A stretch of 64,000 bases of DNA from a virus (lineage: Duplodnaviria > Heunggongvirae > Uroviricota > Caudoviricetes). Location of the stretch: the IMG/VR virus record IMGVR_UViG_3300018430_000002; one strand, written 5' to 3'. The notes beneath the pieces are model-generated. The model was given only the letters and a program-made list of their open reading frames with translations. It was not told where the DNA came from and did not search any database. Made by a program: the position numbers and the translations under genes. This document shows positions 33,363 to 49,813 of the stretch, piece after piece; position 1 is the first letter of the stretch; every line of letters begins with the position of its first letter.

Positions 33363-33552
33363 GGTGTTTCCTTTCTCTCGTGGGTTTGGTAGGGTTTTCC
33401 TTCCCTTGATGTATTCATTATACCACCGAAGTGGTAGAATGTCAAGTTAAGAGTTTGTTAACTCGGCTCGGGGCTTCCGAAGTGCTTGCCCCTCTTGATG
33501 TATCCATTATAGCACAGTGTGCGGTGGATGTCAAGTTAAGAGTTTGTTAAGT

Positions 33553-33694
33553 GAGGGAAGTGGGATTCGAACCCACGGTTCCGATTCTGCTGGCGTCTTA
33601 ACCTACTGGACTACCCGATCTAACCAGAGGGGGATGGGACTCGAACCCATGGTTCCAGACAGAGGGCGTCTTTACCAACTGGACTATTCCCTCA
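33553..33694 (-). ncRNA. tandem pair of tRNA-like elements with intact D- and T-arms but non-canonical anticodon arms; outer ends GAGGGAA/TTCCCTC are 7/7 complementary
   Basis: Two units TAGTCCAGT(T/A)GGT(A/T)AAGACGCC ... GGGTTCGA(G/A)TCCCA(T/C). The 17-18 nt between D and T stems do not form an anticodon stem. Confidence 0.4.
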
Positions 33695-34047
33695 CCGACA
33701 TCTATAGTATAGCATACTCGGGCACAGATTGCAATAGGGTTTACAGACTCTTAACAATGAATATTTATACAGGTTTCGGGAATATTTATACACGATGCAT
33801 GATTATACATTTTGATGTATAATTATGCATAGACCCCTGGTATCGCGAACTCCGGTCGTGGCGGATGCTAATGCGCCCGGCCACGACCGGCCAAAACAAC
33901 AGCCCCAGGCGAACACAGGCGCTTGGGGCTGTATATTTATTCAATCTATATTCATCAATCACAGGGCGTCAGCCCGTGGGGTCTTTGTTTCTATTCATGC
34001 AGGATCATTCCCCTTTCGGTTACACCTGGGTTACCCCAGGGCGGTCA

Positions 34048-34452
34048 TCAGACCGCCTTGAAGTAAGCCTTGCGCTTCTCTTCGGTGCGGACGACCTTGC
34101 CGTCCAGCATAGAGCGCAGGAGGGAAGCGACCTTCTGGCTCGACTTAAACTTGGTCATCAGCTCGGGCACAGCTTCCATCAGTTCACTGACGGTCACTGC
34201 CTTGCCGACAGACTTGAGGGCTTCGTAGACCTCTTCGGCTTCGCCGACTGCGGCAAGCTGCTTCGCAGTGGGCTTCTTGGGGGCGGCAGCCTTCTTGTCA
34301 AGCTGCTCGACCATGGCGGTCAGCTTGGCGACTACCTCTGCGGCAGAGTAGGTGAGGGAATCCTCGCCTGCGGTCAGGGTGAAGGATTCAGCGGACTTGG
34401 ACAGGACTTCGATAGCGGTGGACAGAGCAACACGATTAGTCATCTTCAGCAT
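34048..34452 (-). CDS. hypothetical protein (duplicate copy B)
   Basis: ORF track 134 aa. Paralog of 32943..33362. Confidence 0.5.
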   Translation of the reverse strand: MLKMTNRVALSTAIEVLSKSAESFTLTAGEDSLTYSAAEVVAKLTAMVEQLDKKAAAPKKPTAKQLAAVGEAEEVYEALKSVGKAVTVSELMEAVPELMTKFKSSQKVASLLRSMLDGKVVRTEEKRKAYFKAV

Positions 34453-34770
34453 AGTATCATACCTTTCTGGTTTGTGAGGTTTTCCTTCCTCTTTATGTAC
34501 TCATTATACCACATTCCGTGGGGAGTGTCAAGTTAAGGGTTTGTTAATTCGCTTCGCTGGCTCGGAACCGACCATGGTGTGTTGGCCACCCACACCGCAA
34601 GCCCGCTCGGCTCAGCGTCTTGTGTTCCCCTCTTGACACTCTTATTATACCACAGAGTGTAGTGGGTGTCAAGTTAAGGTTTGGTTAACTCGGCGATCCC
34701 CTAGGTGATCGTCGGGAGTGCCTTGCCCTCCTGACATTTATAATTATAGCAGGTTTCGGGCAGAAATACA

Positions 34771-34890
34771 AGTCGGTAAAATCACCAAATTTTCAGCCAA
34801 TTTTTTGTGCATCCTGCTCCTCGCGGAAACTCGGCTCGCGCGCGAGCACACGCGCCCGAGCGCGAGCCGCTAAAAAAAGAGGGCTTGCGC
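34771..34890. repeat. intergenic ~110-bp repeat family (copies at 34771-34890, 36541-36676, 38481-38625): AT-rich UP-like segment + CCTGCT..TGnGAAAnaCCGCT + GC-rich hairpin + terminator
   Basis: Alignable blocks ttttgtatatcctgctgcgttgtgaaataccgctcg / tttgtataccctgctctattgcgaaacaccgctgg / ttttgtgcatcctgctcctcgcggaaactcggctcg. Confidence 0.4.
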
Positions 34891-34895
34891 CCTCT

Positions 34896-35156
34896 TTATT
34901 CCTCCATGGTGTCGATGTCGCTCAGCATCTTCTGAATCAGCTGGACACGAGCATCCTTCGGCATCGTTTTGTATTTGTCTGCGATACGCTCATAGCTCAG
35001 AGGTTCGGTCATGTAGGGCTTCAACACCAAGCCATCACCATCGACATACATTTCCAGTGCATCACCTTCGCGCAGGTTGAGATTTCTACGGATTTCCTTC
35101 GGGATTACAATGCGGCCAAGTTCATCAAGGCGTCTTACGATTCCAGTTGCTCTCAT
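34896..35156 (-). CDS. AbrB/MazE/SpoVT-family transcriptional regulator
   Basis: ORF track 86 aa. N-terminal GIVRRLDELGRIVIPKEIRRNLNLREGDALE swapped-hairpin motif. Terminator at 34862-34890. Confidence 0.6.
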   Translation of the reverse strand: MRATGIVRRLDELGRIVIPKEIRRNLNLREGDALEMYVDGDGLVLKPYMTEPLSYERIADKYKTMPKDARVQLIQKMLSDIDTMEE

Positions 35157-35185
35157 AATGTTTTATTTCCTTTCCTTTTGATGTA

Positions 35186-35232
35186 TTTATTATACCATGA
35201 AAGGGCTTGATTGTCAAGCCCTTTCTTTGTTA
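35186..35232 (-). promoter_or_regulatory. class II promoter, representative copy: TTGACA embedded in a gene-specific palindrome, TGnTATAAT -10, upstream GTTAACAAAC/TTAAC motif
   Basis: About 25 copies in front of nearly every small minus-strand gene between 31200 and 43310. Spacer often contains TCCCGAAACC. Confidence 0.55.
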
Positions 35233-35236
35233 AGTT

Positions 35237-35704
35237 TTAGAGCAGGTTTTCAAGGTAGGCATTCAGGGCATCAAAATCTACCTTGTAGTAATTGCGCTTG
35301 GCTTCAATGGTAGCCAGTCGGTCGGGCAGGAAGTTCACGCTGCGGTTGCGGTAGTCCTCATTGCGAAAGTCGAAGCACTTCATCAGCGGGCCAGAAAACA
35401 GGACTTCGTCGGTCTTGTAGCGGTCTACGACTTCGCCCCATTCTACATTGACTTCCTTGGGGAAGGTTTCTACCCTTGCGATTACCACGAAACCATCTTC
35501 ACGCAGGTTCTGGAGCGAATAGGGCTTGAACTCAACATCCAGCCAGCGGAAACTGTGGGAAGTACCTGCGGCGACAGCATTGGCAAGTGCTTCGGCTCGG
35601 CGTGCGTCCTCAAACTGCTGGGTGGTGAACTCGACGGGCAGGGAAGCGAACAGGTTGCGAGTGGCGTTGATGCGAGCGATGTTGATGTTGGTCATCTTCT
35701 TCAT
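35237..35704 (-). CDS. hypothetical protein
   Basis: ORF track 155 aa. Class II promoter at 35715-35770. Confidence 0.5.
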   Translation of the reverse strand: MKKMTNINIARINATRNLFASLPVEFTTQQFEDARRAEALANAVAAGTSHSFRWLDVEFKPYSLQNLREDGFVVIARVETFPKEVNVEWGEVVDRYKTDEVLFSGPLMKCFDFRNEDYRNRSVNFLPDRLATIEAKRNYYKVDFDALNAYLENLL

Positions 35705-35802
35705 GGTGTTTTTCCTTTCTCTCTTGGGTTTGTTCAGTGTTGTCCTTCACTTGATGTATTTATTATAACATGGTTGGTCGGGTTTGTCAAGTTAAGGATT
35801 TG

Positions 35803-36027
35803 TTAAATCCTTAACTTGCTCGGGTCAATTTCCACGACTTCATCGGTACAAAGTACCGAAACCTTGCGCAGATAAAACGGGACGTAAATCGGCAGTTTAG
35901 CATACCACTTGTGGCAATTCTTCGACCATTCACGCCCGAGATACCAACGACCGAAAAGGTGAATGGGGTTGTATCCATGTTCCCGCAGACGCTCGATGCG
36001 GTACTCATCGCTAATTGCTCTTGACAT
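35803..36027 (-). CDS. hypothetical protein
   Basis: ORF track 74 aa. Confidence 0.4.
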   Translation of the reverse strand: MSRAISDEYRIERLREHGYNPIHLFGRWYLGREWSKNCHKWYAKLPIYVPFYLRKVSVLCTDEVVEIDPSKLRI

Positions 36028-36029
36028 GT

Positions 36030-36230
36030 TTACTTCTCCTTTACATAGTAGTTAATGTAGGCCGTCCAGCCTGCACCGATGGTCTTGCCTTCGACTCTGC
36101 CCTCATCAATGAGTTCGTGAACGTATTCCAGACAGGACACATGCCAGCAGTTACAGTAGTGACCGATGTCGCGGAGACGGATGCCATGCTTGCCAGACTT
36201 CTTGATTGCTTCGAAAACCTTTTCTTTCAT
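36030..36230 (-). CDS. small putative DNA-binding protein
   Basis: Track ORF trimmed to MKEKVFEAIKKSGKHGIRLRDI, downstream of the -10 at about 36252. Confidence 0.35.
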   Translation of the reverse strand: MKEKVFEAIKKSGKHGIRLRDIGHYCNCWHVSCLEYVHELIDEGRVEGKTIGAGWTAYINYYVKEK

Positions 36231-36307
36231 GTTGTTTCCCTCTCTTTCTGAATCTATTATACCATCTTGGAGGGGTTTTGTCAACCCCTCCGCAGGTTAA
36301 CTGTTTG

Positions 36308-36490
36308 TTAACCCCAGATGGTGTCCTCGCTCTTGCGAGTCTGGCATACGCCAAGGTAGATGTTGTTGTCGTCTTCCATGTAGGTGACGGTGGGGCCATC
36401 CCATTCAAAAGTGGCCTTCATGCGACGGGCGAGGCTCTTGCCTTCTTCGGTGTTGGGAATGGTGTAAACGGTGGTCTCAGTAAACTTCAT
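36308..36490 (-). CDS. hypothetical protein
   Basis: ORF track 60 aa. Confidence 0.35.
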   Translation of the reverse strand: MKFTETTVYTIPNTEEGKSLARRMKATFEWDGPTVTYMEDDNNIYLGVCQTRKSEDTIWG

Positions 36491-36673
36491 GGTGTTGTCC
36501 TCCTCTTGTTGATGTATACATTATAACAGGTTTCGGGATATTTGTCAAGAGGCAAAAATGCACAAAATGCAGAAAATTTTTTTGTATATCCTGCTGCGTT
36601 GTGAAATACCGCTCGTTGCGGATGCTGAGGCGTCGGCAACGCGCGGACGGAAAAAAAGAGCCTTTCGGCTCTT

Positions 36674-36874
36674 TTACTTCAAGAGGTTGGAGCAATCGAT
36701 TTCACAGGTGGTATTTGCCCATACCAGGGTTTTGCCGCAAATCGGGCAGGTGGTATAGATTGATCCCTGAGAGGTTCGGTGCTCCTCGTTGTGAGTTGCA
36801 ATATATTCGGAAGTGCAGATCGGGCAGGTGTACTTGTAGCCATGCAGGCGTCCATCTTTAATAATGATAATCAC
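36674..36874 (-). CDS. zinc-ribbon protein (CPIC...CPIC), GTG start
   Basis: Track ORF trimmed below the promoter. RBS GAGAGGAAAA. Confidence 0.4.
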   Translation of the reverse strand: MIIIIKDGRLHGYKYTCPICTSEYIATHNEEHRTSQGSIYTTCPICGKTLVWANTTCEIDCSNLLK

Positions 36875-36953
36875 AGTGTTTTCCTCTCTTTCATTTGATG
36901 TATTTATTATAGCATAGGTTCGGCGATTTGTCAAGGGGTTTCAGAAACTTTTT

Positions 36954-37502
36954 TTATTCCTGCCCTTCGGGGTGAAGGGCAGGGATGTCAAGGAAGGAAC
37001 GGCTTACGATGTAGTCAGCCATGTGAACAGCTCGGTCGATGTTGGTGAAGGGCTTATCGTCCTTTTCGGTGGTCCACTGTCCCATGTGGCTCTTGATTGC
37101 CATGCCGATGAAGGGGGAGAAGGTCAAACCAGCTTCGGCACAGAAGGTTTCCCAGTTGATGGCGGCGTTCTTTGCGTGGTCGGCGTACTGGCTCTTGTCC
37201 ATCTCTGCGCCCATGCCGTACTTGCAGGTGTCGTGCATGATTGCGGCGGCGTAGGCGTAATCCTTGTAATCTTCGGGCATGTAGGCGTAACTGCTGAGCT
37301 TCAAAAGCTCGTCCAGCATCATCACAACCGCCTTGGTGTGTCGTACCAGACCGCCTTCGCCCTGCGAGAACTTGGGGTGATACTTGCCGGAACTGGATGC
37401 GCCGATCTGGAAAAAGTAGGCAGGAACGGCAGTGTTCATGTACTCGGTGACTGCGTTGCGAAGGGTTTCATTCTTGATGCGTGCGATTTCGTTGGTGAAC
37501 AT
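36954..37502 (-). CDS. HD-domain phosphohydrolase
   Basis: ORF track 189 aa. GKYH...GGLVRHT...IMHDTCK (H...HD metal ligands). Confidence 0.55.
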   Translation of the reverse strand: MFTNEIARIKNETLRNAVTEYMNTAVPAYFFQIGASSSGKYHPKFSQGEGGLVRHTKAVVMMLDELLKLSSYAYMPEDYKDYAYAAAIMHDTCKYGMGAEMDKSQYADHAKNAAINWETFCAEAGLTFSPFIGMAIKSHMGQWTTEKDDKPFTNIDRAVHMADYIVSRSFLDIPALHPEGQE

Positions 37503-37582
37503 GTGGTGTTTCCTCTCTTTCATTTGATGTATTCATTATACCACAGGGGCTTGGACTTGTCAAGTCCCTGTTGTGTTAAGAT

Positions 37583-37822
37583 TTAGCGACACTTGGCGCC
37601 GCACTTTACATAGGCGTTAACCTTGCGTCCCTCGAAATACTCTTCGGCGGTGATTTCCTTGGCAAACATCGGCATCTTGCCGTGCTTCATGCCAGGCATT
37701 TGCTTAGCAAAGTCCATTGCGTCAATCATGCTCTTTGCCTTTACATAGAAGCAACAGTCCAGACGGTAGTACTTGCGACCAGTGTGGCCACGTTCCATGG
37801 ATACCTTGTAATACTTCAACAT
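37583..37822 (-). CDS. hypothetical protein
   Basis: Track ORF trimmed to MLKYYKV. Confidence 0.35.
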   Translation of the reverse strand: MLKYYKVSMERGHTGRKYYRLDCCFYVKAKSMIDAMDFAKQMPGMKHGKMPMFAKEITAEEYFEGRKVNAYVKCGAKCR

Positions 37823-37878
37823 TGTTTTGTTCTCCTCTCTTGTTTGTAAGTCTATTATACCACGGTCAGAAGGGTTTG

Positions 37879-38226
37879 TCAACCCTTCCAACCGTTAAGG
37901 TTTTGTTGCGTTTCTGTTACATCGGGCACCCACACATCAACAGTGACTTCGGCGCTCCAGATGTTGTCATTCTCTGCCAGACTATCACGGGCATTATTGT
38001 CGCAGGTATCGTGCCAGCGCTCCAGTGCTTCCTGCCGTTCATCGGCGGTCATGTCAAACAGTTCTCGGATAGTGTATTCAGCGGCCAGCCAGTCATTGAA
38101 TTCCCATTCATCTTCGAGAAGTTCTTCGATCTTCTCTTCCAGTCGTGCCTGATACTCTTCCTCGTTGAGAACTTCCTGATTGTTGTAGTCCACGTAGACA
38201 GTGATGTTCCTCTTGACGTATGCCAT
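37879..38226 (-). CDS. acidic hypothetical protein
   Basis: ORF track 115 aa. Confidence 0.45.
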   Translation of the reverse strand: MAYVKRNITVYVDYNNQEVLNEEEYQARLEEKIEELLEDEWEFNDWLAAEYTIRELFDMTADERQEALERWHDTCDNNARDSLAENDNIWSAEVTVDVWVPDVTETQQNLNGWKG

Positions 38227-38299
38227 GTTGTTTGCTCTCCTTTGCTTTTCTTGTCTTTATTATACCATGCAAGATGGTGGAAGTCAAGTTAAGTGTTTG

Positions 38300-38433
38300 T
38301 TAACCAATCGGCCAGATTTCTTCTTCGCCATCCATCCAGACACGCTTGCACAGTGTGCCATCTTCGTTGGTGTAATCATCGTACCAGATACAGCCCACCT
38401 GCTGGCTATCAATCCAAGTCCACTTGTTTTCCA
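38300..38433 (-). CDS. small protein (44 aa)
   Basis: MENKWTWIDSQQVGCIWYDDYTNEDGTLCKRVWMDGEEEIWPIG, downstream of the class II promoter. Confidence 0.3.
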
Positions 38434-38606
38434 TTGCGTTCCCCTCACTTTCTGTATACATTATAGCACGTTTCGGGACATTTGTCAACAGGTAAAAATA
38501 CACAAATTTTGCACGAGATTTTTGTATACCCTGCTCTATTGCGAAACACCGCTGGCTGTCGAAGCAAAGCGCCCCGTCAGCCAGCGGGCCAAAGAAAAGC
38601 AGGTGC

Positions 38607-38858
38607 TCAGCGCTTGAGCACCCAGTCGGGGAGGTTCTCCCAGAGTCGGGAGAGGTGGCAGGTGACCACCGTGGAGCGTTTCCACTCCGTATCGGCCCCA
38701 TCCCAGAAGTACTGGTAGTGGTCGACGGTGACCATGTCACCGTGGAAGGAGACCTTGATGGTCTCGTGGCTGGCCAGCCAAGAGCCGCAGCCAGCGAAGA
38801 GGTAACCGGGACGGCTTTCGAAGCCGTAGGCAGCGAGGGCGTTGATGATGTTCTTCAT
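38607..38858 (-). CDS. hypothetical protein
   Basis: ORF track 83 aa. Class II promoter at 38880-38925. Confidence 0.4.
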   Translation of the reverse strand: MKNIINALAAYGFESRPGYLFAGCGSWLASHETIKVSFHGDMVTVDHYQYFWDGADTEWKRSTVVTCHLSRLWENLPDWVLKR

Positions 38859-38955
38859 GGTGTGTACCTCCTTGTTTGTTCCCTTTCGTTGATACTATTA
38901 TAACACGGTTTCGGCAGTTTGTCAAGCCCTTTTTGAGGGGGAGGAAGAATTTTTT

Positions 38956-39141
38956 TTATTCTTCCTCGTAGGCCCCTTCGATGTAGGGGACCACCTTGAA
39001 CTCGGTGGTCTCCCCACAGGCCTTGGCACCTCTGCGGTACCAGCCGGCGGACTTAACCGCCTTGACGTGGGAGGGGGTCCGGAGACCAGTGGACTTCCAC
39101 TGGGCGGAAGAGGAACGGCGGAACAGGATTTCGTAGAACAT
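38956..39141 (-). CDS. hypothetical protein
   Basis: Track ORF trimmed to MFYEILF. Confidence 0.35.
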   Translation of the reverse strand: MFYEILFRRSSSAQWKSTGLRTPSHVKAVKSAGWYRRGAKACGETTEFKVVPYIEGAYEEE

Positions 39142-39387
39142 GGGGTGTACCTCCTTCATCAGGGCTCTTGTCCCTTGCTGTTGTATACATTATACCATAG
39201 CCCCACCCACATGTCAAGCACTTTACAAACACTTAACATAGGTTTCGGGATTGCCCATGACCTGCTGTGCGCCAGCTTTTCCATTATTAATTTCTTAACA
39301 CAATCTTAACGCGCGATTTCGGCGACCCCTCGAACCTCTTCGGCTATTACGATTATAACACAAAAAGGGGTTGTTGTCAACCCCTTT

Positions 39388-39858
39388 TTACAAATTTTTT
39401 GATTCAGATACAAAGTATTTTGCATCGTAACTCTGTAACAGTTTCTTAACATTCAGGCTGTCCTGCTGAGTCGGGCAGTAGAAGTTAAACAGGAAATACT
39501 TTTCGATGTCTACGTAATTGTAAGTCAGTCCGTAGTATTTACAATCTTCTAACATCTGCGGAGCCTGCTCGGCAGGGATGGTGACTTCTACTTTCCAGAG
39601 TTTATCTTTTCTTGCCTTTTCCTCAAAGTACTTGACAACCCACACGCCCACCAGATTACACAGGGCAACGATGCCAGCTTTCCACCACAGGGGCAGTTCG
39701 CACAGCATGTAAACTGTTACGATTGTGTAAAGTCCGTAGGCCACGGCGTTGACAACTGCGGCGGCAGTCTTGCCGCATTTGATGGTTGCGATGCTCTTGA
39801 TGGTCTGAATGATTACGTTGGCGATGTTCAAAAGGATGAAGGTTAAAAGCAGGTTCAT
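39388..39858 (-). CDS. membrane protein (3-4 TM)
   Basis: ORF track 156 aa, hydrophobic N-terminal half. Confidence 0.45.
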   Translation of the reverse strand: MNLLLTFILLNIANVIIQTIKSIATIKCGKTAAAVVNAVAYGLYTIVTVYMLCELPLWWKAGIVALCNLVGVWVVKYFEEKARKDKLWKVEVTIPAEQAPQMLEDCKYYGLTYNYVDIEKYFLFNFYCPTQQDSLNVKKLLQSYDAKYFVSESKNL

Positions 39859-40086
39859 TCAGTTGTCCTCCTCTGTTTCGTAGTGAGTCAAGATGCCAGC
39901 ATCATCGTAAAAAGCCTGGACGAACCAGCCATCCACCCAGATATCGAGTTCCGTTGAGTCTGCTTCATGACCGATTGTATACCATTCTACAGCTTCGCTC
40001 AAATACTCTACATTATTTTTACGGAGCCAGCCGACCATCTTGCTGTGGTTCTTCTTTTCGATTACCTCTTTGACTTTTTCGAACAT
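39859..40086 (-). CDS. hypothetical protein
   Basis: ORF track 75 aa. Confidence 0.4.
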   Translation of the reverse strand: MFEKVKEVIEKKNHSKMVGWLRKNNVEYLSEAVEWYTIGHEADSTELDIWVDGWFVQAFYDDAGILTHYETEEDN

Positions 40087-40148
40087 TGTGTGTTTCCTCT
40101 CTTTCTTTTGTTGTATTTATTATACCACAGGAAGGGAATTAAGTCAAG

Positions 40149-40484
40149 TTAATTCCCTGTTACGTCGTAGGTGGTGAACTCAGTGCCGAACCAGTCTTGC
40201 TTGACAGTTGCTTCAATTTCAATCAGGTCGCCGATGCTGTATCGTGCATAGGTGCTTGCGCTTACTCGGTCAGCACCTGCTTCATCACCATCACACCAAA
40301 AGATGTGATATTTGGGAGCACTGCGATACTTTTCGGTAACTGCCTTGTCGGTGATTTCAGCGTGGAAGGAATAAGTCTCAACCTCATGGATGCCGATAGT
40401 GAACCATGCCAGAAAAAAGATTGCGATGGCAATGAAGGTGAAAAAGATGATGTCGCCGATGGTTCTGAAGATCTTGTTTTTCAT
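40149..40484 (-). CDS. membrane-anchored hypothetical protein
   Basis: ORF track 111 aa. N-terminal TM segment. Confidence 0.45.
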   Translation of the reverse strand: MKNKIFRTIGDIIFFTFIAIAIFFLAWFTIGIHEVETYSFHAEITDKAVTEKYRSAPKYHIFWCDGDEAGADRVSASTYARYSIGDLIEIEATVKQDWFGTEFTTYDVTGN

Positions 40485-40552
40485 GATGTGTTTCCTCTCT
40501 CTCGTTTCTTTCTGTATACATTATACCATGGAGAAGGGGTTTTGTCAACCCC

Positions 40553-40909
40553 TTATTTGAAAAATTCTCCACAATCTTTGCGACGCTTACCACACTTGAA
40601 AGCGCACAGGCCATGCTCCATGAGTTCTGCATAGAAGGGATCATCATAAGAAACCTTGAACCATTCGGTTTTCTTACCGTCTATGCAAGCGGTTACCATC
40701 TCATAGCCACGAGCAACGATTTCAGCATGGAACATCTCTTCAACCTTGCGCTTGCTGGATACTCGGGTTTTTACATGACTGATGCAACGAACTTCGGGGT
40801 TGTGCGTGGTGTAGGCGTAAATGCGGGTTTCCATATCTTTGGCAAAGCCTGCCTTGAAGGCGGCGTGGTCTCTCTTCTCATCCATCATCAGGTAAACATT
40901 GTACATCAT
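40553..40909 (-). CDS. hypothetical protein (possible T5orf172/GIY-YIG-like)
   Basis: Track ORF trimmed to MMYNVYLMMDEKRD. IYAYTTHNPE motif. Confidence 0.35.
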   Translation of the reverse strand: MMYNVYLMMDEKRDHAAFKAGFAKDMETRIYAYTTHNPEVRCISHVKTRVSSKRKVEEMFHAEIVARGYEMVTACIDGKKTEWFKVSYDDPFYAELMEHGLCAFKCGKRRKDCGEFFK

Positions 40910-41026
40910 TGTTAGTCTCTCCTTTGCTTTGGGCTCTTGCCCTTTCGTTGATACTATTATAACACAGGTGCACGCACTTGTCAACCCTTTTTTGAAAAAA
41001 ACTTTTTTTTATTTTTTTTCAAAAAC

Positions 41027-41056
41027 CTATTGACAAACAGGCTTTGCTGTGGTATA
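41027..41056 (+). promoter_or_regulatory. plus-strand TTGACA-N17-TGgTATACT promoter facing an ORF-poor ~350-nt region
   Basis: Consensus boxes. Downstream 41060-41420 has no convincing ORF and ends in GC hairpin 41371-41412. Confidence 0.4.
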
Positions 41057-41427
41057 CTATTATCAACAGGTGAGGGGAACACACCAAGCCGAGAAACCAA
41101 GCGCGCAGGAAAGATTGGCGAAGCACCCAGTTCCCACGACCACCGCCCAGAAACAGGTAGTTTAGCTAGGTTAGAACATCCCGACAGGGAAGAAGCCGTT
41201 CAAATCGGCCCTAGGGCATAGGGGTCAGCCCCATTCCATACATCCACGGCGGCGAGATTCCGCCCGCGCAAGCGAAGACGAGAGTGGCTCTGTTTTGGGA
41301 TGGGGCTTAATTTATTTTTAACAAAGATTTTACATGTTAATTTTCTGTAAGGTATAGTGTTGCGCGAATCAGGGCCGCGCACGGGTGTTGAGGCGCCCGT
41401 GCGCGGCCCTGCGAAAAAAGAGGCAGC

Positions 41428-41573
41428 TTACGCTACCTCTACTTTAATGGGATGCCACCCTTGATTGACCAATGCGTTACGCAGGTCGGCAGCCTGCCAT
41501 GCCTGCCATGCCTGTGCCTCGCTGGTGTAAGGTTCGATTCCTCTCAGTCCACTACGACTCATGATGTACCACA
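41428..41573 (-). CDS. small protein
   Basis: Trimmed to MWYIMSRSGL. Confidence 0.3.
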
Positions 41574-41657
41574 TTGTGTTGTTCTCCTCTCTTGTTGTTG
41601 TACTTATTATACCACAGTGAGAGCCTGTTGTCAAGCCCTCACTGTGTTAAGTGTTTG

Positions 41658-41879
41658 TTACCATGCCATCAGTCTCAGCTGACGAGCTTCTTGTACGGAA
41701 TAGGTGCGCTTGTGGATGAATGCTTTCTTCAGGCCTACGACTTCATCACTGTGCATTTCTTCTTTGGCGATTGCTTTTTTCAAGCTTTCCAAAGAACCAC
41801 GAGTGATAATAGAACGCCATTCACCGTATTCTCCATTGTTGTAGTGATCGTATTTGGTAAGAGTTGCTGCGTACATCAT
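41658..41879 (-). CDS. hypothetical protein
   Basis: Trimmed to MMYAATLTKY. Confidence 0.35.
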   Translation of the reverse strand: MMYAATLTKYDHYNNGEYGEWRSIITRGSLESLKKAIAKEEMHSDEVVGLKKAFIHKRTYSVQEARQLRLMAW

Positions 41880-41964
41880 TGTTGTATTCCCCTCTCGTTT
41901 CTTTCTGTATTTATTATACCACGGAAAGGCTTGTCTGTCAAGCCTTTCCTTTGTTAAGTGTTTG

Positions 41965-42225
41965 TTACGCATTGAGTGCGAGCTTCTTTAAGAACTGCGT
42001 GTAGGTCAGGGAGAAGAAACGCTTGCCGTTGATGTAGTCGGCGATCATGGCGATCTGTTCCTCGCTGTAGGTCAGGCCCCAGAAGTCACACCAGTTGGCG
42101 AGCTTCACAGTCAGGCTGCCCTTGCGAACTTTGTTCACATCGCTCTTCATGTCATCCAGAGCAAAGGGATTGTTGAAATACTTAACCTGCTTGATGAGGT
42201 AGACTGCGATGTTGTTCTTATCCAT
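41965..42225 (-). CDS. hypothetical protein
   Basis: ORF track 86 aa. Confidence 0.4.
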   Translation of the reverse strand: MDKNNIAVYLIKQVKYFNNPFALDDMKSDVNKVRKGSLTVKLANWCDFWGLTYSEEQIAMIADYINGKRFFSLTYTQFLKKLALNA

Positions 42226-42334
42226 TGTTTTTCTCTCCTTTGTTTTTCCCTTTCGTTGTACTTATTATACCATGGGTTTCGGGATTTGTCAATAGGTTTT
42301 TGAAAATTTTTTTGAGAAATTTTTAGGGAAAGGC

Positions 42335-42721
42335 TCAAGCCTTTCCCTTTGGGGGTCGATGTGCGGTGAGCGTCACGCTGTAGTGTACGCCGTTCAGGTG
42401 GAAGTCGATCTGCCGTTCGGGATTGATAACCTCGCAGTTATCGAAGTCGGCAAGCGTGTCTTTCAGGCAGTCGATGATCAGGCGCTTGTCTTCATTGGGT
42501 TTGCGCTCTCTTGTGCGCTTGCGCCCGTAGGCATCTACGCTGTGTTCGCCTGTGCGGAGGGAGCCATTTTCCTTTGCGCCCTTTGCCATCTCTTTCATCT
42601 CGGGGGTTTCAATGTCCTCACGATCTTCCAGAATAGCCTGTTCCGCTTCCTCTCTTGTGTCGCCCAGGTTCATGAATGCCTGGATCTGTCTTTCCTCTTT
42701 AGGGGTGAATTTGATAGCCAT
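42335..42721 (-). CDS. hypothetical protein, paralog of the 31926..32381 C-terminus
   Basis: Trimmed to MAIKFTPKEE. Confidence 0.45.
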   Translation of the reverse strand: MAIKFTPKEERQIQAFMNLGDTREEAEQAILEDREDIETPEMKEMAKGAKENGSLRTGEHSVDAYGRKRTRERKPNEDKRLIIDCLKDTLADFDNCEVINPERQIDFHLNGVHYSVTLTAHRPPKGKA

Positions 42722-42768
42722 GTTATCCCTTCCTTTCAATAACATTATACCACAGACAGAGGGGCTTG

Positions 42769-43053
42769 TCAAGCCCCTTTCTGTAGTTTTTTAATCTTTT
42801 TATCTACGTTATTTCTCTTGTGTACAAGTCTGTTATACTTGCGTTGTCTGCGCTTGCGCTTGGCCTCTTCTCTGCGTGCTCTCCATACTCTTGCCCACTC
42901 CATAGGAATAGACTTTACTACATAGCACACATTGCTGTTCTTGTTGCGTGCGTTGTACACCTCGCATACAGCGTAGGCATTGCGCTGAGTGAGGAAGACG
43001 CCTGCCCTAGTGAGGCAGCAGTCTGCCCCTGTGTCCTTTACTACAAGATACAT
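42769..43053 (-). CDS. basic hypothetical protein
   Basis: Trimmed to MYLVVKDTGADCCL. Confidence 0.35.
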   Translation of the reverse strand: MYLVVKDTGADCCLTRAGVFLTQRNAYAVCEVYNARNKNSNVCYVVKSIPMEWARVWRARREEAKRKRRQRKYNRLVHKRNNVDKKIKKLQKGA

Positions 43054-43073
43054 TGTGTATCGCTTCCTTTCTG

Positions 43074-43241
43074 TTAGCGCAGAGCCAATGCCTGCGCTTC
43101 GGTCATGCGGATAACAGTGAAGTGTTCGCCGCTCTTGCTCATTCGACGATAGCCCCACTTCCTAGCAAGGCGCTCAGTGTAGTGCATAGAGTAGCGGATG
43201 CCGCGCGGAGTGGTGTAAGGTACTACGTAAACAGTCTTCAT
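43074..43241 (-). CDS. small basic protein
   Basis: Trimmed to MKTVYVVPYT. Class II promoter at 43265-43310. Confidence 0.3.
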   Translation of the reverse strand: MKTVYVVPYTTPRGIRYSMHYTERLARKWGYRRMSKSGEHFTVIRMTEAQALALR

Positions 43242-43299
43242 GGTGTTGTTCCCCTCTCGTTTGTTTCTGTATACATTATACACCACAGGGGCGCACTTG

Positions 43300-43420
43300 T
43301 CAATGAGTTATTTGTTAAGAATGTGTTAACAATATTTAACAAACATTTAACATTTCGGGAAAGTAGGGGTTTGGTCAGTTTGTTAAGTTTTTGTTAAATT
43401 TTTGTTAACAACATGTTTTC
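43300..43420. repeat. cluster of at least 8 TTGTTAAC/TTAACA motifs (same element found upstream of class II -35 boxes)
   Basis: atttgttaagaatgtgttaacaatatttaacaaacatttaacattt ... gtttgttaagtttttgttaaatttttgttaacaac. Confidence 0.45.
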
Positions 43421-43573
43421 TGTGGAAATCTGGGGCTACGATGGCCGCCTGCGGGCGGGCGTTTTTCAGAGGCCGACAATACATTGTATATTTTTTCTCG
43501 AATAATAGAGGGGGGGTATGTTTCGGGATAAAAATTATTTTAACATTGAATTTACATTATGCCTGGTCCATTC

Positions 43574-44283
43574 TCACACTAAATCATTTTTCGTTTTCAG
43601 ATCACGGGCTTTTTCCAAAATCTTAATTAACGTCAAATCACCATACTCGTTGTGAGGAATGCGCACCAATGGCACTCCAATGTCCATACACCACTCGGTT
43701 TTAATTTTGTCTCTTTCTTGCTGATGTACAAAAGTTTCTTCTCCACCCCAAATTTTCACTGGCGCGGCATGCTGATAACCATCGAATTCAATGACAAAAG
43801 CTAATCCTTCTTTTCCAAATACAGCAAAATCAAAAGCGTATCTCTGTAATCCTTCAAAACGATATTGTTCTTGAAAATTCAATCCACCCGCTTGAAGCAA
43901 TTCACGTATTTTAATTTCGCCTCTCGATGAATGATGACAAGCTACACAAGTATTCTGTCCACTCTTTAGATGATCTGCCTGAATCTGTTTTTCTAAGCCA
44001 CATCTCACGCAACGACATTTCCAATAACATACATGACTACGATTAATATATCCGATTCGCTCTAATACTTCGAAATCGCCATATTTATCTCCCACTTCTA
44101 CTTTCTTGCGTTTGCGCAGTCCAAGAGAACAAGGTTTACAGGAAATTGCCGTTTGACCATTAAGCTTATCAATACGTACACTTACAGTATTACCACAAAG
44201 TTCACATTTACATAAAAAATACTTATTTCCATACTAGGCCGTTTTCACTGGATCCGGCCCTAACACTGTTAAAAATCCACTTT
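43574..44283 (-). CDS. zinc-ribbon + PD-(D/E)XK (Vsr/DUF559-like) nuclease with one in-frame TAG
   Basis: Hand translation MVGKKSGFLTVLGPDPVKTA(TAG)YGNKYFLCKCELCGNTVSV... continuing into the track ORF ...AFVIEFDGYQH.... Confidence 0.4.
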
Positions 44284-44285
44284 TC

Positions 44286-44687
44286 TTACCAACCATTACA
44301 ACCTCCAAATTCTGGACACCACATTACACATTGTCCGTCCGGTCCTTCACATCCAAGAGCCTCAATCGGCAAATCATGGTTTTTGCAAAATTTCTCATAC
44401 TCGCCCCATCCGCAATTCCATAATACATGCTTCGAAACAAATTCATTTTCGGCACGTCTATAAGCATCCTTCTCTTCTTGTGTAGAAGGACGAATATTCG
44501 GGTCTTTTGGCTCATGATACTTAATAGTCGTAGAGCCATCTGGATTTGTTGTCCATGTAGTAATATTCTTATACCACTCCGAATCTTTCTTAAAAGGATT
44601 TTCAAGAGTAGTAGTTCTGTCCCATTCTTCTCTAGCATGAAATACTACCGCATTCACGCCACTAACTACAATAGGTTTAAAAGACAT
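44286..44687 (-). CDS. hypothetical protein
   Basis: ORF track 133 aa. Confidence 0.45.
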   Translation of the reverse strand: MSFKPIVVSGVNAVVFHAREEWDRTTTLENPFKKDSEWYKNITTWTTNPDGSTTIKYHEPKDPNIRPSTQEEKDAYRRAENEFVSKHVLWNCGWGEYEKFCKNHDLPIEALGCEGPDGQCVMWCPEFGGCNGW

Positions 44688-45054
44688 CTATATCGTAATC
44701 CCCTCTCACGGCAACCCAATCGCCGACATTAACATGCATTGTCTGCCACTCGTGAAGCCGAACTTCTCTCCACTTGCCGTCTCGCTCAATTCGAATATAC
44801 CAATAGCCCGGCTTATCAACCATTCTGTGGCCATCTGCCATGGTGATAATTTCTCTGGGGTGATACTGCTCCAAGACAACCTCACCTGTAGACAGGCGTG
44901 GGTCATAATTGGATAAATCACCTATCGCAAAAGTAAGGAGAGTGGCTAACATAATCGCCACGACAACCATAAAAACTGGTACAAAAATTTTACTTGTACG
45001 GCTCATTCTATGCGTATCCTCCTTGGTAGTCCTGCCAGATACCTTCGTCGCCAA
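44677..45054 (-). CDS. membrane-anchored hypothetical protein
   Basis: ORF track 125 aa. Confidence 0.45.
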   Translation of the reverse strand: MATKVSGRTTKEDTHRMSRTSKIFVPVFMVVVAIMLATLLTFAIGDLSNYDPRLSTGEVVLEQYHPREIITMADGHRMVDKPGYWYIRIERDGKWREVRLHEWQTMHVNVGDWVAVRGDYDIDVF

Positions 45055-45346
45055 AATACATTACAGCATCTTTCATATTATATCTATCGCCGACCCAAAA
45101 AGTATACCACTGAGCCGGGCTTACATATTTGGTCCAACGGCAACCATCAAGGTCATCAATGACAAACCAGTAAACGCCACCATGATTCTGACCATATTCA
45201 TCAATATAGCCAGTTACCATACCCTTGTCTACGATAACGCCAGTGTCATTGCTACTACCAACAAGCAAACCACAAACTCCCACAAAAATACAAATCAGGC
45301 CTACAATTAAAACTACCCATTTCATAGTATTTACCTCTTGTTTCAT
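45008..45346 (-). CDS. membrane/secreted hypothetical protein
   Basis: ORF track 112 aa. Class I promoter at 45345-45395. Confidence 0.45.
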   Translation of the reverse strand: MKQEVNTMKWVVLIVGLICIFVGVCGLLVGSSNDTGVIVDKGMVTGYIDEYGQNHGGVYWFVIDDLDGCRWTKYVSPAQWYTFWVGDRYNMKDAVMYFGDEGIWQDYQGGYA

Positions 45347-45390
45347 TTTCTAAATATATTATATCAAAATTTTTTAAAATTTTCAAATTG

Positions 45391-45419
45391 AAGATTCTTG
45401 ACACGAGAAAAAATTTTTG
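45391..45419 (+). promoter_or_regulatory. class III (plus-strand) promoter TTGACAnnGAtAAAAAATTTTTGtTATAAT; other copies at 27395-27423 and 60707-60735
   Basis: Three near-identical copies including the 17-nt spacer. Each is followed by a GGAGG-type RBS and a plus-strand gene. Confidence 0.55.
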
Positions 45420-45443
45420 TTATAATAATACTAACGAAGGAGG

Positions 45444-46517
45444 TTGATTATTATAATCAAGTTAGATTATACGATCGAGTCTCCGGAAGAGCGTAATAAA
45501 TTAGTAGAACAGATTTTAGCTGAAACTCCCGACCCGAGTGAACAGTATCTTGAAATTCTTGCTGATTATTTAGTTCTTTGTATGGAGAAGCAAGAGCGTA
45601 GAGAGAGAAAGATTCTTACGGATAATAGAATGGCTACTATTAATAAACGTGAGACATCTTTTGAAGGTCTTATCGGGCAGTTAGAAAATGGCGAAGATGG
45701 TATTTACAATTTAGTAACGAACGATAAAAATATTATATTTCAACCTAAAGTAACTATTACAAAACAAGATATTGAAGAAATTGCGCCTTTACGACAACTT
45801 AAAGAATCAATAGCTAGATGGGAAGAGTTGTCAAAGACTGCTACTGGACGCGCCGCGTTTATCGCGAAATCTACACTCATTGAATTACGTAAGGATTAGT
45901 ATATTATAAAAAATGCTTATCGTAAACCAATTGTTTTTACTCGATTAACACGAAACACAAGCACTGGAGTGTCGCTCCCCTGGGATGAGTGGATTGATGA
46001 GAATGGAGATATACAATATTCCGGTCTTTCTTTTTTGAATCCCGATATTATTAGTTTAATTTTATGTAATTATTCAAAACTAAAAGAAGATAGTTGGGAT
46101 TAGTTCCAAGGGGATACTTGGTACATGATGCTGGATTTTGATAATATTGCCGAAAAAGCATTAGCAAGTTTCCCTATGTATCGCCGCATCGTTGAATACA
46201 AGGTCGATGGATTGTCCAATCTGACTATTCAAAAAGCAATAGAAGAAGAATTTGGCTTCACCCATTCCATTGAATACATTAGCTCTTTATGGCGTAATAA
46301 AATCCCAAAACTAATTGCTTCTGCCGCAACCGATGAATGGCTCCTTTGGTATTATACTGAAAAAGAACGTGGCCAATGGAAGCGCTGTACTCGCTGTGGT
46401 CAAGTTAAGTTAGCCCATTCACGCTTTTTTTCCATAAATAAAACATCTAAAGATGGATGGTATAGTTTATGTAAGAAATGCCGCAACTCCAAAAATCGTA
46501 AAAAGGAGGGCTAATTT
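45444..46517 (+). CDS. late protein with C-terminal zinc finger; two in-frame TAG codons
   Basis: TTG start after RBS AGGAGG. Track ORFs 45444..45899 and 46125..46514 are in the same frame and are joined through TAG at 45897 and about 46101. Class III promoter at 45391-45419. Confidence 0.45.
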
Positions 46518-47699
46518 ATGGCAGTTGGCAATAATACTTATTACTGTAAAACTTGTAATAGAACTATGGATGAAACTTAGTTCTATACTTCAAGAAGATT
46601 AGACCGTTATCCAAATGATGGTAAGATGCCCGAATGTAAAAAGTGTCTTACTCGCCATGTGGATAATTGGAAACCTGAAACTTTTAAATGGATTCTTGAA
46701 GAAATTGATGTTCCCTACATTGAAGAAGAATGGACCAAATTAATGAGTAAATACTGCACTGACCCTTCCAAGGTCACTGGTATGACAATTCTTGGTCGCT
46801 ATCTTTCTAAAATGAAATTGACCCAATTTGAAAATTATCGTTGGGCTGATACAGAAACTATTTAGGCTCGTTTAAATGCTAGTAAAGCCGAAGTAATGAC
46901 TCGCCAAGGTTATTCAACAGAAGAAATTGAGGCAGCCATTGCGGCAGGCAATGGTATTGAAAAACCTGAAGGTTGGGACACTTCGCCATCGGCGGTAGAT
47001 GCTCCACCTCCAATTGATGCTTTTGAACCAGTTGATTTTAATGATGACCTTACAGAAGAAGATAGAAAGTATCTTGCTATCAAGTGGGGAAAAACTTACA
47101 AACCCTATGAATGGGTTCAATTAGAAAAATATTATCAAGAAATGATGGCATCTTTTGATATTCAAACGCCATCTCATGAAGATTATTTAAAACTTATTTG
47201 TAAAACTTCTATTAAGGCGCATCAACTTATTGACTTAGGAGACATTGAAGGCTTCCAAAAGATGTCTAAAGTTTATGATGCTTTAATGAAATCTGCTAAA
47301 TTTACAGCAGTATAGAATAAAGCTGAATCTGGTGAGTTTGTAAATTCTATTTCTGAATTGGTTCTCTTGTGCGAGAAAGAGGAAGGATGCATTCCTCGTT
47401 TCTATACAGATAAACCAAAAGATAGAGTAGATGAAACACTTGCCGATTTGCGTGGCTATACTAATACTCTTGTTACCGAAGAAATGAATTTGGGTAATCT
47501 TATTGAATCTGCTTTGAAAGCACTACAGCGAGAAGCTGAACGTGAAGAAGATGAAGATATTGATGACGATGATGAAATTTTTGATATGGATAATATTGAT
47601 GATTTAAAAGATAGCGATTTTGAAGAACATTACGACTTTTTGGACGATGAAGCCGAAGCTGACTTCCTTGATATGCAAGATATATTAGAGGAGGAATGA
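46518..47699 (+). CDS. late protein (zinc-ribbon N-terminus, acidic C-terminus; possible small terminase/DNA-binding); three in-frame TAG codons
   Basis: ATG 46518. One frame through TAG 46578, 46863 and 47316 links track ORFs 46626.., 46896.. and 47358... Ends at TGA 47697. Confidence 0.45.
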
Positions 47700-47702
47700 T
47701 AA

Positions 47703-49445
47703 ATGGCTTTATAGGATTTATTAAACCTTTCACAAGATAGATAGAAAATTGGATTATCAGAAGAACGAGTAAGGGCTATTATTCCTGTTGCTCGCGACTA
47801 TATTTCTTACTGGCGTGAATATCCAGATATGTTCGTCGACTTTATGGCGGGTAAGTGGCAAGCCAACCCGCCTAAAGAGACGCTTAATCTATTCTTCTAC
47901 CAGCGAGTATTTTTGAGAGCCGCTATGCGTTATAAATACGTATATGCGGTTTTTCCGCGTGCTTATTCTAAATCTTTCCTTGCCGTTTTGATTCTTATGA
48001 CTCGTGCCGTTTTATATGCCGGCTCTAAGTTATTTGTAACATCTGGTGGTAAGGAACAGGCTTCTGGTATTCTAAAAGAAAAAGTATAGGAAATTTGTAC
48101 TTTGGTGCCGGGCTTCGCAAAAGAGATTGATTGGGGCCGTGGTAAAACTTTGGAAGGTAAGGATTATTGTAAGTATATTTTTAAAAGTGGTTCTTATATT
48201 GATAACTTGGGCGCTTCTGAAAAATCAAGAGGTAAGCGTCGTCATGGCGGACTCGTTGAAGAGTGCGTTGGTGTCGACGGAACTATTTTGAACGAAGTTA
48301 TTATTCCAGTTATGAACGTTTCTCGAAGATTGCCCGATGGCACTTCTGATGATAATGAAGTTCTTAATAAGAGCCAAATCTTTGTTACGACCGCAGGTTG
48401 GAAGAATACTTTTGCTTATGATAAACTTATTCAAATGCTAGTTGGTTAGATTACACAGCCTGAAAAGTTCTGTATTATGGGTGGTACTTGGCGTATTCCT
48501 GTTCTTATGAAATTACTTGATAAGAACTTTGTGCGCGACTTGAAATTGGACGGTACATTTAATGAGTCCTCTTTTGAACGTGAATATGAATCTAAATGGT
48601 CTGGTACTATCGAAGATGCATTCTTCCGTGCAGAACAATTTGACCGCAACCGCATTCTACGTCAGCCTGAATATGAATATTCCGGACGTTCAATTAAATC
48701 GGCATATTATGTTCTGTCTGTTGACGTTGGCCGAAAAGGTTGCGATACGGTAGTTTGTGTATTTAAAGTAACACCTTAGACTGCCGGTGTGTCTATTAAA
48801 ACATTGGTAAACATTTATACACTTCACAATGAACACTTTGAAGATTAGGCTATTGCACTCAAAAAACTTTATTATAAATATAAGGCGCGTCGTATTGTTA
48901 TTGACGCCAATGGTCTTGGTATTGGTCTTGTCGACTATATGGTAAAATCTTAGATGGACCCAGATACGAATGATATTTATCCTGACTTTGGTGTAGAAAA
49001 TGATCCCGATGCTGAATATAAAAAGTTCCGCACAGATGCGTGTGAATATGATGCTATGTATTTGATTAAAGCTAATGCGCCAATCAATACTGAAGCTCAT
49101 GCCAATGCGTAGACGCAACTTTCCTCTGGTAAAGTAAAAATGTTAATAGATGAACGTGTGGCCAAAGTAAAATTGCTTGGAACTAAACGCGGTCAAGAAA
49201 TGAAGCCTGAAGAAAGGGCGGAATATCTTAAACCATTTACCCTTACCTCCATATTGAAAGAGGAAATGATGAATTTGCGTGAAGAAAATGAAGGCGTAAA
49301 TATCATCTTAAAGCAAGCGAATAAAGGTATAAAAAAGGATAAATTTTCTGCTTTTGAATATGGTTTATACTATATTAAATAGGAAGAAGATAGTAAAAAG
49401 CGTAAACGAAAAGGAAAAATATCTGATTTTATGTTTATGAATTAA
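47703..49445 (+). CDS. terL: terminase large subunit with about 10 in-frame TAG codons
   Basis: RBS GAGGAGG, ATG 47703. One frame joins track ORFs 47829.., 48102.., 48477.. and 49140... ATPase-like FVTSGGKEQ and VTTAGWKNTF motifs. Nuclease-like RRIVIDANGLGIGLVD motif. Confidence 0.65.
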
Positions 49446-49456
49446 GGAGGTCCCTC

Positions 49457-49813
49457 ATGAGAGCATCACGAGGAGAAATTAAAATTCAAGAGATACTCCA
49501 ATAGTCTGGCTTGCGATTTACAATGGAACAGTCATTTGAGGGACTGAATAGTTCTAATGGTCGCCCATTGCGTTTTGACTTTTGCGTTTATGATGATGAT
49601 GGCAATATTGATTTTTTAATTGAATATCAAGGTAAGCAACATTATGAGCCAAGTCAAAAATTTGGAGGCAAGAAGGGTTTCTATTAGTAGCAGTTTAATG
49701 ATAATAAGAAGCGTCGCTTTTGTGCATTGAATGAAATTACTTTAGTTGAAATTCCATACACAGAAGAGAATCTTATTTCATACGACTATATTTTAGAAAA
49801 AGCTGGTTATTGA
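49457..49813 (+). CDS. small nuclease-like protein (IEYQGKQHY motif) with in-frame TAGs including a TAG-TAG doublet
   Basis: Hand translation from ATG 49457 to TGA 49811. Confidence 0.35.

Follow-up and report, generated by a model that had tools for sequence, protein, structure and literature searches.

A predicted structured early RNA with a tRNA-like domain in a TAG-recoded tailed phage, and its possible partnership with a Ro60-like protein

The tailed phage record IMGVR_UViG_3300018430_000002 (Duplodnaviria; Heunggongvirae; Uroviricota; Caudoviricetes) supplied the 64,000-nucleotide (nt) stretch of DNA that was analysed here as a whole and is referred to below as the window. At positions 41065–41319 of its plus strand lies what is very probably a stand-alone gene for a structured non-coding RNA (ncRNA) of ~255 nt with a tRNA-like domain, running from a promoter-proximal start to the U-run of a terminator. 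The locus has the features of a stand-alone ncRNA gene of bacterial type: a promoter and an intrinsic terminator of its own, conserved and covarying helices, and no capacity to code for protein. As to function, we tentatively suggest that the RNA may act as a Y-RNA-like partner of a Ro60-like protein encoded by the same phage, a partnership that we infer by analogy with known Ro60–RNA pairs.

The promoter (P1, 41030–41058, plus strand) consists of a −35 hexamer TTGACA (41030–41035) and a −10 hexamer TATACT (41053–41058) separated by a 17-nt spacer that includes the TG of an extended −10 element (41050–41051; TGgTATACT), with transcription predicted to start at about A41065. It matches 11 of 12 consensus positions in addition to the TG, and promoters of at least this quality are expected only 0.01 times per strand by chance (300 shuffles of the 36–46 kb interval). 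Two are observed on the plus strand of that interval, the second being the one that starts the late operon. The strong plus-strand promoter proposed by an earlier, sequence-only reading of this DNA was therefore confirmed, as was its description of the surroundings as belonging to the minus strand: every other strong promoter between ~30 and 45.4 kb is on that strand. The promoter stands back-to-back with a minus-strand promoter (40984–40956), within an A/T-rich inverted repeat (40978–41001 / 41013–41036), and is conserved in L156–L160, L164 and L165 (related loci are given L numbers here). From these signals we infer that the locus is transcribed. A replication origin at this A/T-rich divergent promoter region was also considered and was rejected, the GC skew making no turn there.

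The same reading had seen no credible open reading frame (ORF) beyond a low-complexity one of 63 amino acids, and here too it was right. That ORF (41030–41221) begins within the −35 hexamer, and no start codon (ATG, GTG or TTG) with a Shine–Dalgarno sequence lies 3′ of ~41065 in any frame, even when TAG is read through. A small protein gene, possibly expressed by TAG read-through, nevertheless deserves mention: with TAG read-through, one plus-strand frame stays open over 40952–41350, and the late genes of this phage do recode TAG. We find this hardly credible, given the lack of a start codon with a ribosome-binding site after the predicted transcription start, the low complexity of the translations, the 1-nt and 4-nt indels by which homologues of the region differ and the swapping of whole modules between sister phages. 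Four UAG triplets at 41156–41176 were likewise considered as a TAG-recoding signal and were rejected, as they are part of a tRNA D-arm consensus.

The predicted intrinsic terminator comprises a 12-bp stem (41227–41238 / 41296–41307) followed by the U-rich tail UAAUUUAUUUUU (41308–41319); a terminator-like site was listed at 41286–41307 plus this tail. It is situated ~50 nt ahead of a GC-rich hairpin that had previously been taken as the end of the RNA. The transcript most likely stops at its own terminator, upstream of that hairpin, which belongs to another family of elements. The sequence-only reading had offered an antisense or regulatory RNA on the one hand and a structured RNA element on the other, and it is the latter that stands, on three grounds: the locus is a conserved island among early sequences that otherwise diverge, compensatory double changes affect 13 of its base pairs, and it has a promoter and terminator of its own. 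Nothing calls for or supports an antisense regulator, since the RNA terminates short of the convergent gene. A more general version of this idea makes the locus a cis-acting antisense or transcription-interference device directed against the early genes, in which the fold of the RNA is irrelevant. Its attraction is that P1 is the sole strong plus-strand promoter within ~15 kb of minus-strand early genes and that in relatives this antisense promoter leads into nothing but a GC hairpin, so that the promoter is more widely conserved than the RNA. We nonetheless judge interference improbable: the convergent gene ahead of which the RNA terminates has a terminator of its own, the stretch in question lies between two minus-strand units and overlaps no minus-strand gene, and covarying helices and tRNA-like arms would not be expected to persist if interference were all that mattered.

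The predicted RNA is modular. Its 5′ domain (41069–41135) opens with a hairpin (GGUG/CACC, 41069–41072 / 41082–41085), the loop of which (GGGAAC, 41075–41080) pairs with GUUCCC (41130–41135) to give a pseudoknot or long-range helix; an internal hairpin occupies 41088–41119 and a GGCGAAG motif 41117–41123. Pairing and compensatory changes in this domain were read directly from the sequences. The loop helix is GGGAAC/GUUCCC in the window, GGAAGC/GCUUCC in L005, GAAGC/GCUUC in L012 and AAGGC/GCCUU in L063, and the hairpin stem occurs as GGUG/CACC, GGUUG/CAACC or GGAG/CUCC.

Next comes the tRNA-like domain (41138–41226), in which an extended, interrupted 'acceptor' stem (41138–41157 with 41211–41226) encloses a D arm (GUUU-AGCUAGGUUA-GAAC, 41160–41177), a 4-bp stem capped by a tetraloop (UCCC-GACA-GGGA, 41179–41190) in the place of the anticodon arm, and a T arm (GCCG-UUCAAAU-CGGC, within 41194–41210). 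The D arm, read together with the preceding UA, has A14, R15, G18G19 and A21 as in the tRNA consensus; the T arm has G53-UUCAAAU-C61, with UUCGAAU in L165, so that its loop varies as UUCRAAU in the manner of tRNAs. Since the sequences of both arms fit the consensus, a tRNA-like elbow is expected. When all early regions were scanned with T-arm and D-arm consensus patterns, the two arms were found together only in these RNAs. In other respects the domain departs from a tRNA: the 4-bp stem and tetraloop replace an anticodon arm of 5 bp and 7 nt, a long stem with interruptions takes the place of the acceptor, and neither the tRNA nor the tmRNA model of Rfam gave a match in the region (E ≤ 10). Judged by its predicted fold, the RNA is a tRNA mimic and not a tRNA.

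The 3′ domain (41227–41307) is bounded by a closing stem (AGCCCCAUUCCA / UGGGAUGGGGCU, 41227–41238 / 41296–41307) that serves also as the terminator stem and surrounds a three-way junction. The junction is built from helix P1 (41244–41247 / 41284–41287), the P2 hairpin (41248–41264) and the small P3 hairpin CGC-GCAA-GCG (41265–41274), followed by the single strand AAGACGAGA (41275–41283). A CGAA-containing 20-mer, CGCGCAAGCGAAGACGAGAG (41265–41284), is identical in all lineages that carry it. An unconstrained minimum free energy fold recovers the T arm, the tetraloop stem, P1 to P3 and the closing stem, and also pairs GGGGAAC with GUUCCC.

To place the RNA among relatives, the product of the first late gene (45444–45899) was used as a marker protein, yielding 80 related IMG/VR loci from a clade of ~165–195 kb phages. 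Seven further alleles (L156–L160, L164 and L165) came from ENA and Logan contigs with an identical or near-identical marker protein. Homologues of 41152–41318 were detected at the syntenic position in L005–L008 with ~80% identity, and a 38-nt core in L019 and L020 (nhmmer and BLAST); identity is 71% between 40949–41308 of the window and L005, and 92% for the 38-nt core in L019. Neighbouring early genes mostly have no match at the DNA level, making the RNA region one of few islands of such conservation. A covariance model of the RNA structure found L164, L165, L159 (partly), L005 and L006, and L019 (junction only); searched against 1.3 Mb of related loci, model R1 gave no members beyond these close lineages.

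In an alignment of nine sequences, 98.5% of the cells at paired positions are able to pair. Thirteen pairs have changed on both sides, compared with 5.2 ± 1.5 in shuffles (none of 500 reached 13), and when partner columns were slid by 1–3 positions only 0–2 double-changed pairs remained. Compensatory changes thus appear to back nearly every helix. The clearest case is the stem that replaces the anticodon arm, which occurs as UCCC/GGGA, CCGC/GCGG, UCGC/GCGA or CUAC/GUAG and always carries a tetraloop cap. Among homologues, a C-G pair of the T stem becomes A-U, a U-A pair of the D stem becomes G-C and an A-U pair of the proximal acceptor becomes G-C, helix P1 is CCAC/GUGG in the window and GGGC/GCCU in L019, and the second pair of P2 is either G-C or U-A. 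Among the checks put forward with the sequence-only reading, conservation in related phages accordingly came out in favour of an RNA, with syntenic homologues and covarying helices. Another, an Rfam scan, did not: run on the whole window at gathering thresholds and on the region at E ≤ 10, it returned only chance miRNA-type matches on the GC hairpin.

These patterns also bear on another explanation, that the locus no longer has a function, being what is left of a decaying tRNA gene or a mobile fragment that inserted here. The patchy distribution among relatives would suit such an origin, as would the resemblance of the RNA to an insertion between promoter and GC hairpin and the absence of a tRNA call from ARAGORN or Rfam. 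Compensatory double substitutions that preserve every arm speak against it, as do the four different but always paired stems in the anticodon arm's place; so do the intact promoter and terminator, and the 20-nt block that is invariant across lineages only ~70% identical elsewhere. We regard decay as very improbable.

No match was found by blastn against 50,697 phage records, and an exact 25-mer of the region found nothing in IMG/VR. The invariant 19-mer retrieved no IMG/VR contigs beyond six already known, and its eight matches in JGI metagenomes were all unrelated chance ones. Following synteny through the neighbouring T5orf172 gene gave only identical copies (L002 and L003) and one relative without the RNA.

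A candidate protein partner is encoded on the minus strand at 1932–3443, 3′ of the tRNA array and on the same strand as it. The 500-amino-acid product contains DUF2828 and DUF7788 domains; besides these, Pfam gave a weak VWA_2 match and none to TROVE. In a search with its AlphaFold model the top four PDB matches were Deinococcus radiodurans Rsr, Ro60 of the Thermus phage phiLo (9L5Y) and Xenopus Ro60, matched over the full length. Full-length identity to a mycobacteriophage 'Ro-like RNA binding protein' is 36%, and the protein corresponds to PHROG 850, named 'RNA-binding protein'. The model suggests that DUF2828-type 'RNA-binding proteins' are Ro60-like in fold. Homologues are encoded in more than 700 phage genomes, including Bacillus Tsamsa-like, Felix O1-like, Listeria, Staphylococcus, Vibrio and Campylobacter phages, and in view of the shared fold many DUF2828 phages may carry unrecognised Y-like RNAs. 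In mycobacteriophage Archie a T arm–hairpin–D arm (T-AS-D) module comes after the Ro-like gene and scores only 20.2 bits against the YrlA model, suggesting that phage Y-like RNAs typically fall below the Rfam cut-off.

Allelic variation likewise points to Y RNAs. In L019, L156, L157, L158 and L160 the promoter and the closing stem CCCCAUYCCA/UGGGAUGGGG are kept, and inside that stem the T arm comes first, then a hairpin, then the D arm. This permuted tRNA-like domain defines the bacterial YrlA RNAs (PMC4201824), which mimic tRNA and carry the motif GNCGAAN0-1G (PMC4201824, Chen et al. 2014). Against the full Rfam YrlA model (RF02553) the L019 RNA scores 24.3 bits (E = 0.0067; gathering threshold 69 bits), and it combines this YrlA-type module with the three-way junction of the window RNA. 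Sister phages thus hold differing sets of modules at one locus within one closing stem, the alleles being mosaic. The closing stem itself would fit a protein-recognition site, because its sequence is conserved while the other stems covary freely.

Related RNAs are present elsewhere in these genomes. A second predicted early ncRNA in the window (~33546–33700, minus strand, promoter 33734–33706) also points to Y RNAs. It carries D and T arms in duplicate and an outer stem of 9 perfect base pairs (GUGAGGGAA/UUCCCUCAC), and looks like two tRNA-like domains joined via their anticodon-stem sides. In its middle the order is T arm, hairpin, D arm, and this segment is a homologue of the YrlA-like L019 module (nhmmer E = 5e-8); the RNA scores 30.6 bits against the Rfam tRNA model and 17 bits against YrlA, is not called by ARAGORN and has a homologue in L157 (840–983). 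Promoter-driven early RNAs on the minus strand of L023 (~1560–1440) and L072 (~6650–6520) have an acceptor of 5–7 bp and a T arm without a D arm, and that of L023 ends in ACCA. The 5′ part of the allelic RNAs of L019 (~6405–6425), L156 (~2675–2695) and L157 contains a hairpin with a covarying stem (CGAAG/CUUCG or CUGAG/CUCAG) and a conserved loop GGUCGACA. As this loop holds the self-complementary GUCGAC, a kissing-loop contact could let these RNAs dimerise; the loop is also similar to GGUCCGA, the Ro-binding motif of animal Y RNAs.

Several observations weigh against a Ro60 partnership or against the structural assignment beneath it. The arms of the window RNA follow the order D (41160–41177), stem (41179–41190), T (41194–41210) rather than the permuted T-AS-D, and it is the extended acceptor-like side, not the anticodon stem, that leads out of the tRNA-like domain. 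The invariant strand AGCGAAG in the 20-mer has one mismatch to GNCGAAG, and the perfect GGCGAAG at 41117–41123 is not positionally conserved. A distance of 38 kb separates the RNA from the Ro60-like gene, and the two are on opposite strands; known YrlA genes share the strand of their Ro60 gene and are within ~4 kb of it (PMC4201824). A Y-like RNA beside the window's Ro60-like gene was looked for and none was found; around Ro60-like genes in 57 related loci there was no homologue of the RNA, only ordinary tRNAs. The Ro60-like gene is core to the clade and the RNA is patchy, many relatives having only promoter and GC hairpin. Model quality is moderate (predicted local distance difference test score, pLDDT, 72.7), and the matches to Ro60/Rsr folds have E values of ~1e-5 to 1e-6 and template modelling (TM) scores of ~0.45. 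ARAGORN was negative on the plus strand in tRNA and tmRNA modes with relaxed thresholds, Rfam gave no match for the window RNA in 40900–41700 at E ≤ 10, and the covariation comes from only ~6–9 distinct sequences in an alignment fitted to the model. Given the lack of a YrlA match, the tRNA-like order of the arms, the distance of 38 kb, the absence of such RNAs beside Ro60-like genes and their patchiness, we file the RNA as Y-RNA-like, or as a tRNA mimic, and not as a member of YrlA.

In the picture proposed here, the RNA would be transcribed from the near-consensus extended −10 promoter by the host's sigma-70-type RNA polymerase and would be abundant early in infection, its own stem plus U-run ending the transcript. 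The product would be a modular RNA with D and T loops able to form a tRNA elbow, lacking an anticodon or CCA end, and could serve as a Y-RNA-like ribonucleoprotein scaffold or a tRNA mimic. Binding to the phage's Ro60-like protein would be through the closing stem and the CGAA module, and the tRNA-like domain would engage tRNA-recognising host proteins early on, such as a PNPase-like exoribonuclease, tRNA processing or repair enzymes, or tRNA-targeting defence nucleases.

The main rival to this proposal dispenses with Ro60. The RNA would then be a tRNA-mimic decoy, abundant early, that titrates or misdirects host tRNA-targeting defence nucleases or tRNA-binding enzymes, and the shuffling of modules between sister phages would reflect an arms race. 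The strong early promoter suits a decoy, as does the presence of D and T arms without an anticodon, the extreme turnover of modules among phages that share an identical flanking marker protein, the phage's heavy investment in tRNAs (32 genes, one of them for a suppressor tRNA, see below) and the existence of the other tRNA-like early RNAs of the clade (33546–33700 in the window, L023 and L072). Yet a decoy leaves the sequence-conserved closing stem and the invariant CGAA 20-mer, which look like a protein site, unexplained; it names no particular defence system or target; and the genome's Ro60-like gene, taken with the YrlA-type architecture of the allelic variants, matches Y RNAs more specifically. 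A Ro60-independent decoy therefore seems to us rather unlikely, though it has to be taken seriously.

Whichever protein the RNA may contact, the swapping of modules between near-identical phages is the most unusual feature of the locus. The modules exchanged are the normal-order tRNA mimic, the permuted YrlA-type mimic, the CGAA three-way junction and units with a T arm only. One speculative and rather doubtful view is that the locus is a hypervariable 'RNA cassette site', at which modules are exchanged behind a fixed promoter and within a fixed closing stem, with the window version representing an undescribed architecture of Ro60 ligand or counter-defence decoy and the turnover driven by an arms race with tRNA- or RNA-directed immunity. 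Phage Ro60 proteins and Y-like RNAs are already known, and the roles proposed for them in infection are PNPase hijacking and the countering of defence systems. What the window adds is an RNA family outside Rfam in which a single transcript unites a tRNA mimic of normal order with an invariant CGAA junction, and the allelic module swaps of near-identical phages amount to a natural structure–function series. It would also be a Y-like RNA that has parted from the Ro60 gene and come under an early promoter of host type, which suggests action in the first minutes of infection.

The GC-rich hairpin downstream is part of a plus-strand element (41362–41420) composed of the leader GCGCGAAUC (containing GCGAAUC), the stem and the trailing sequence GCGAAAAAAG. 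The sequence-only reading gave it 17 bp at 41371–41412, which is essentially right: the perfect part is of 16 bp (41370–41385 / 41396–41411), extended by a few imperfect pairs. Further copies in the window are on the plus strand at ~30422–30460 and ~34820–34880, and L001 has copies on the minus strand at 6950–6905 and 8905–8870. The family is clade-wide, with a GSGAAWWYC leader and often a GNCGAAAA trailer, and always points against the early genes. In most of the 80 loci a perfectly conserved antisense promoter (TTGACAAATTGCTGG...TGGTATAATGGAAATTC) stands directly before the hairpin, whose stem there is 7–12 bp; in other loci a TTTAACA-N4-TTTAACA motif takes the promoter's place. Among 25 family members, stem pairs are flipped between G-C and C-G in roughly half, indicating that hairpin and leader are a conserved structured element in their own right. 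A weak promoter-like site precedes the window copy (41329–41358, plus strand; TTTACA, 18-nt spacer, TATAGT; 10/12, no TG), and is probably no dedicated promoter, since its −10 is lost in the sister phages L156 and L157. The hairpin is placed just after the terminator (41419–41440, minus strand) of a convergent early gene of 48 amino acids (41428–41573, minus strand), and the U-run of this terminator is the complement of the A-run after the hairpin. This placement suggests a role in stopping or processing: the element, which is separate from the RNA, is probably a bidirectional stop or processing hairpin that ends the convergent early unit. The idea that the GC hairpin or the promoter–hairpin units mimic CRISPR repeats, as an RNA anti-CRISPR would, was set aside, since the 16-bp perfect stem and its flanks are not known to resemble such repeats, no comparison with genomes having been made.

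The phage itself has a genome of ~168.6 kb, identical copies of the region being found on contigs of 168,658 and 168,644 bp. It has 32 tRNA genes at 8.5–16.3 kb, one of which (10744–10836, minus strand) encodes a suppressor tRNA with a CUA anticodon. The plus-strand late genes (45435–52849 and beyond) contain in-frame TAG codons and form contiguous ORFs only when TAG is read through, upon which the fragments merge into genes of 359, 394, 580, 533 and 479 codons. With the CUA tRNA, this identifies the phage as TAG-recoded; the early minus-strand genes appear to use the standard code.

The early region (30–45.4 kb) consists of small minus-strand genes, almost each of which has its own perfect TTGACA-17-TGnTATAAT promoter. 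Some 35 perfect or near-perfect copies lie on the minus strand at 30200–45400, about one per small early gene, an unusually dense host-type array. Promoter-like sites number 42 against 14 in shuffles for 36–46 kb, and 32 against 14 for 26–36.5 kb. The gene divergent from the RNA promoter (40553–40909, minus strand) encodes a protein with a T5orf172 (GIY-YIG-related) domain. It is missing from the syntenic position in the sister phages L156–L165 and is placed elsewhere in L001, a shifting location that fits a mobile gene of the homing-endonuclease type. An inverted pair of TTTAACAAACATTTAACA motifs is present between early genes at 43331–43408. In relatives this motif occupies the promoter position before promoter-less GC hairpins (L010 at 2531, L016 at 1277 and 5166), and it may be a phage-specific promoter or protein-binding site.

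How, then, does the predicted RNA compare with known systems? Phage T4 encodes the species 1 and 2 RNAs, stable tRNA-related ncRNAs that are located in the tRNA cluster and processed from tRNA precursors. The window RNA is like them in being a phage-encoded, tRNA-related ncRNA, and differs in standing alone among the early genes, 25 kb away from the tRNA array, with a promoter and terminator to itself. With tRNAs it shares the D- and T-arm consensus, but it lacks an anticodon loop and a 7-bp acceptor ending in NCCA. Unlike tmRNA, it has neither an NCCA end nor a tag reading frame; the tRNA-like domain of tmRNA finds its nearest likeness here in the early RNAs of L023 and L072, which share its acceptor stem plus T arm. 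YrlA (RF02553) resembles the window RNA in having an anticodon-less domain of T and D arms on a distant 5′/3′ stem, a CGAA-containing motif and a Ro60-like gene in the genome; the window RNA differs in the order of its arms, in its extra modules (the 5′ pseudoknot and the three-way junction), in having no Rfam match and in the distance of its Ro60-like gene.

A further parallel is the Thermus phage phiLo, whose Ro60 protein binds two phage Y-like RNAs, each with a CGAA-bearing bulge flanked by a 5′–3′ stem, and recruits host PNPase (PMC12135203). In its predicted fold the window's protein matches phiLo Ro60 (9L5Y), but it is a DUF2828-type relative without a Pfam TROVE match. The genes for the phiLo RNAs Yrl1 and Yrl2 directly precede that for Ro60 (PMC12135203), unlike the window RNA; the invariant CGAA strand of the latter is similarly placed to theirs, a likeness of described architecture rather than of compared sequences.

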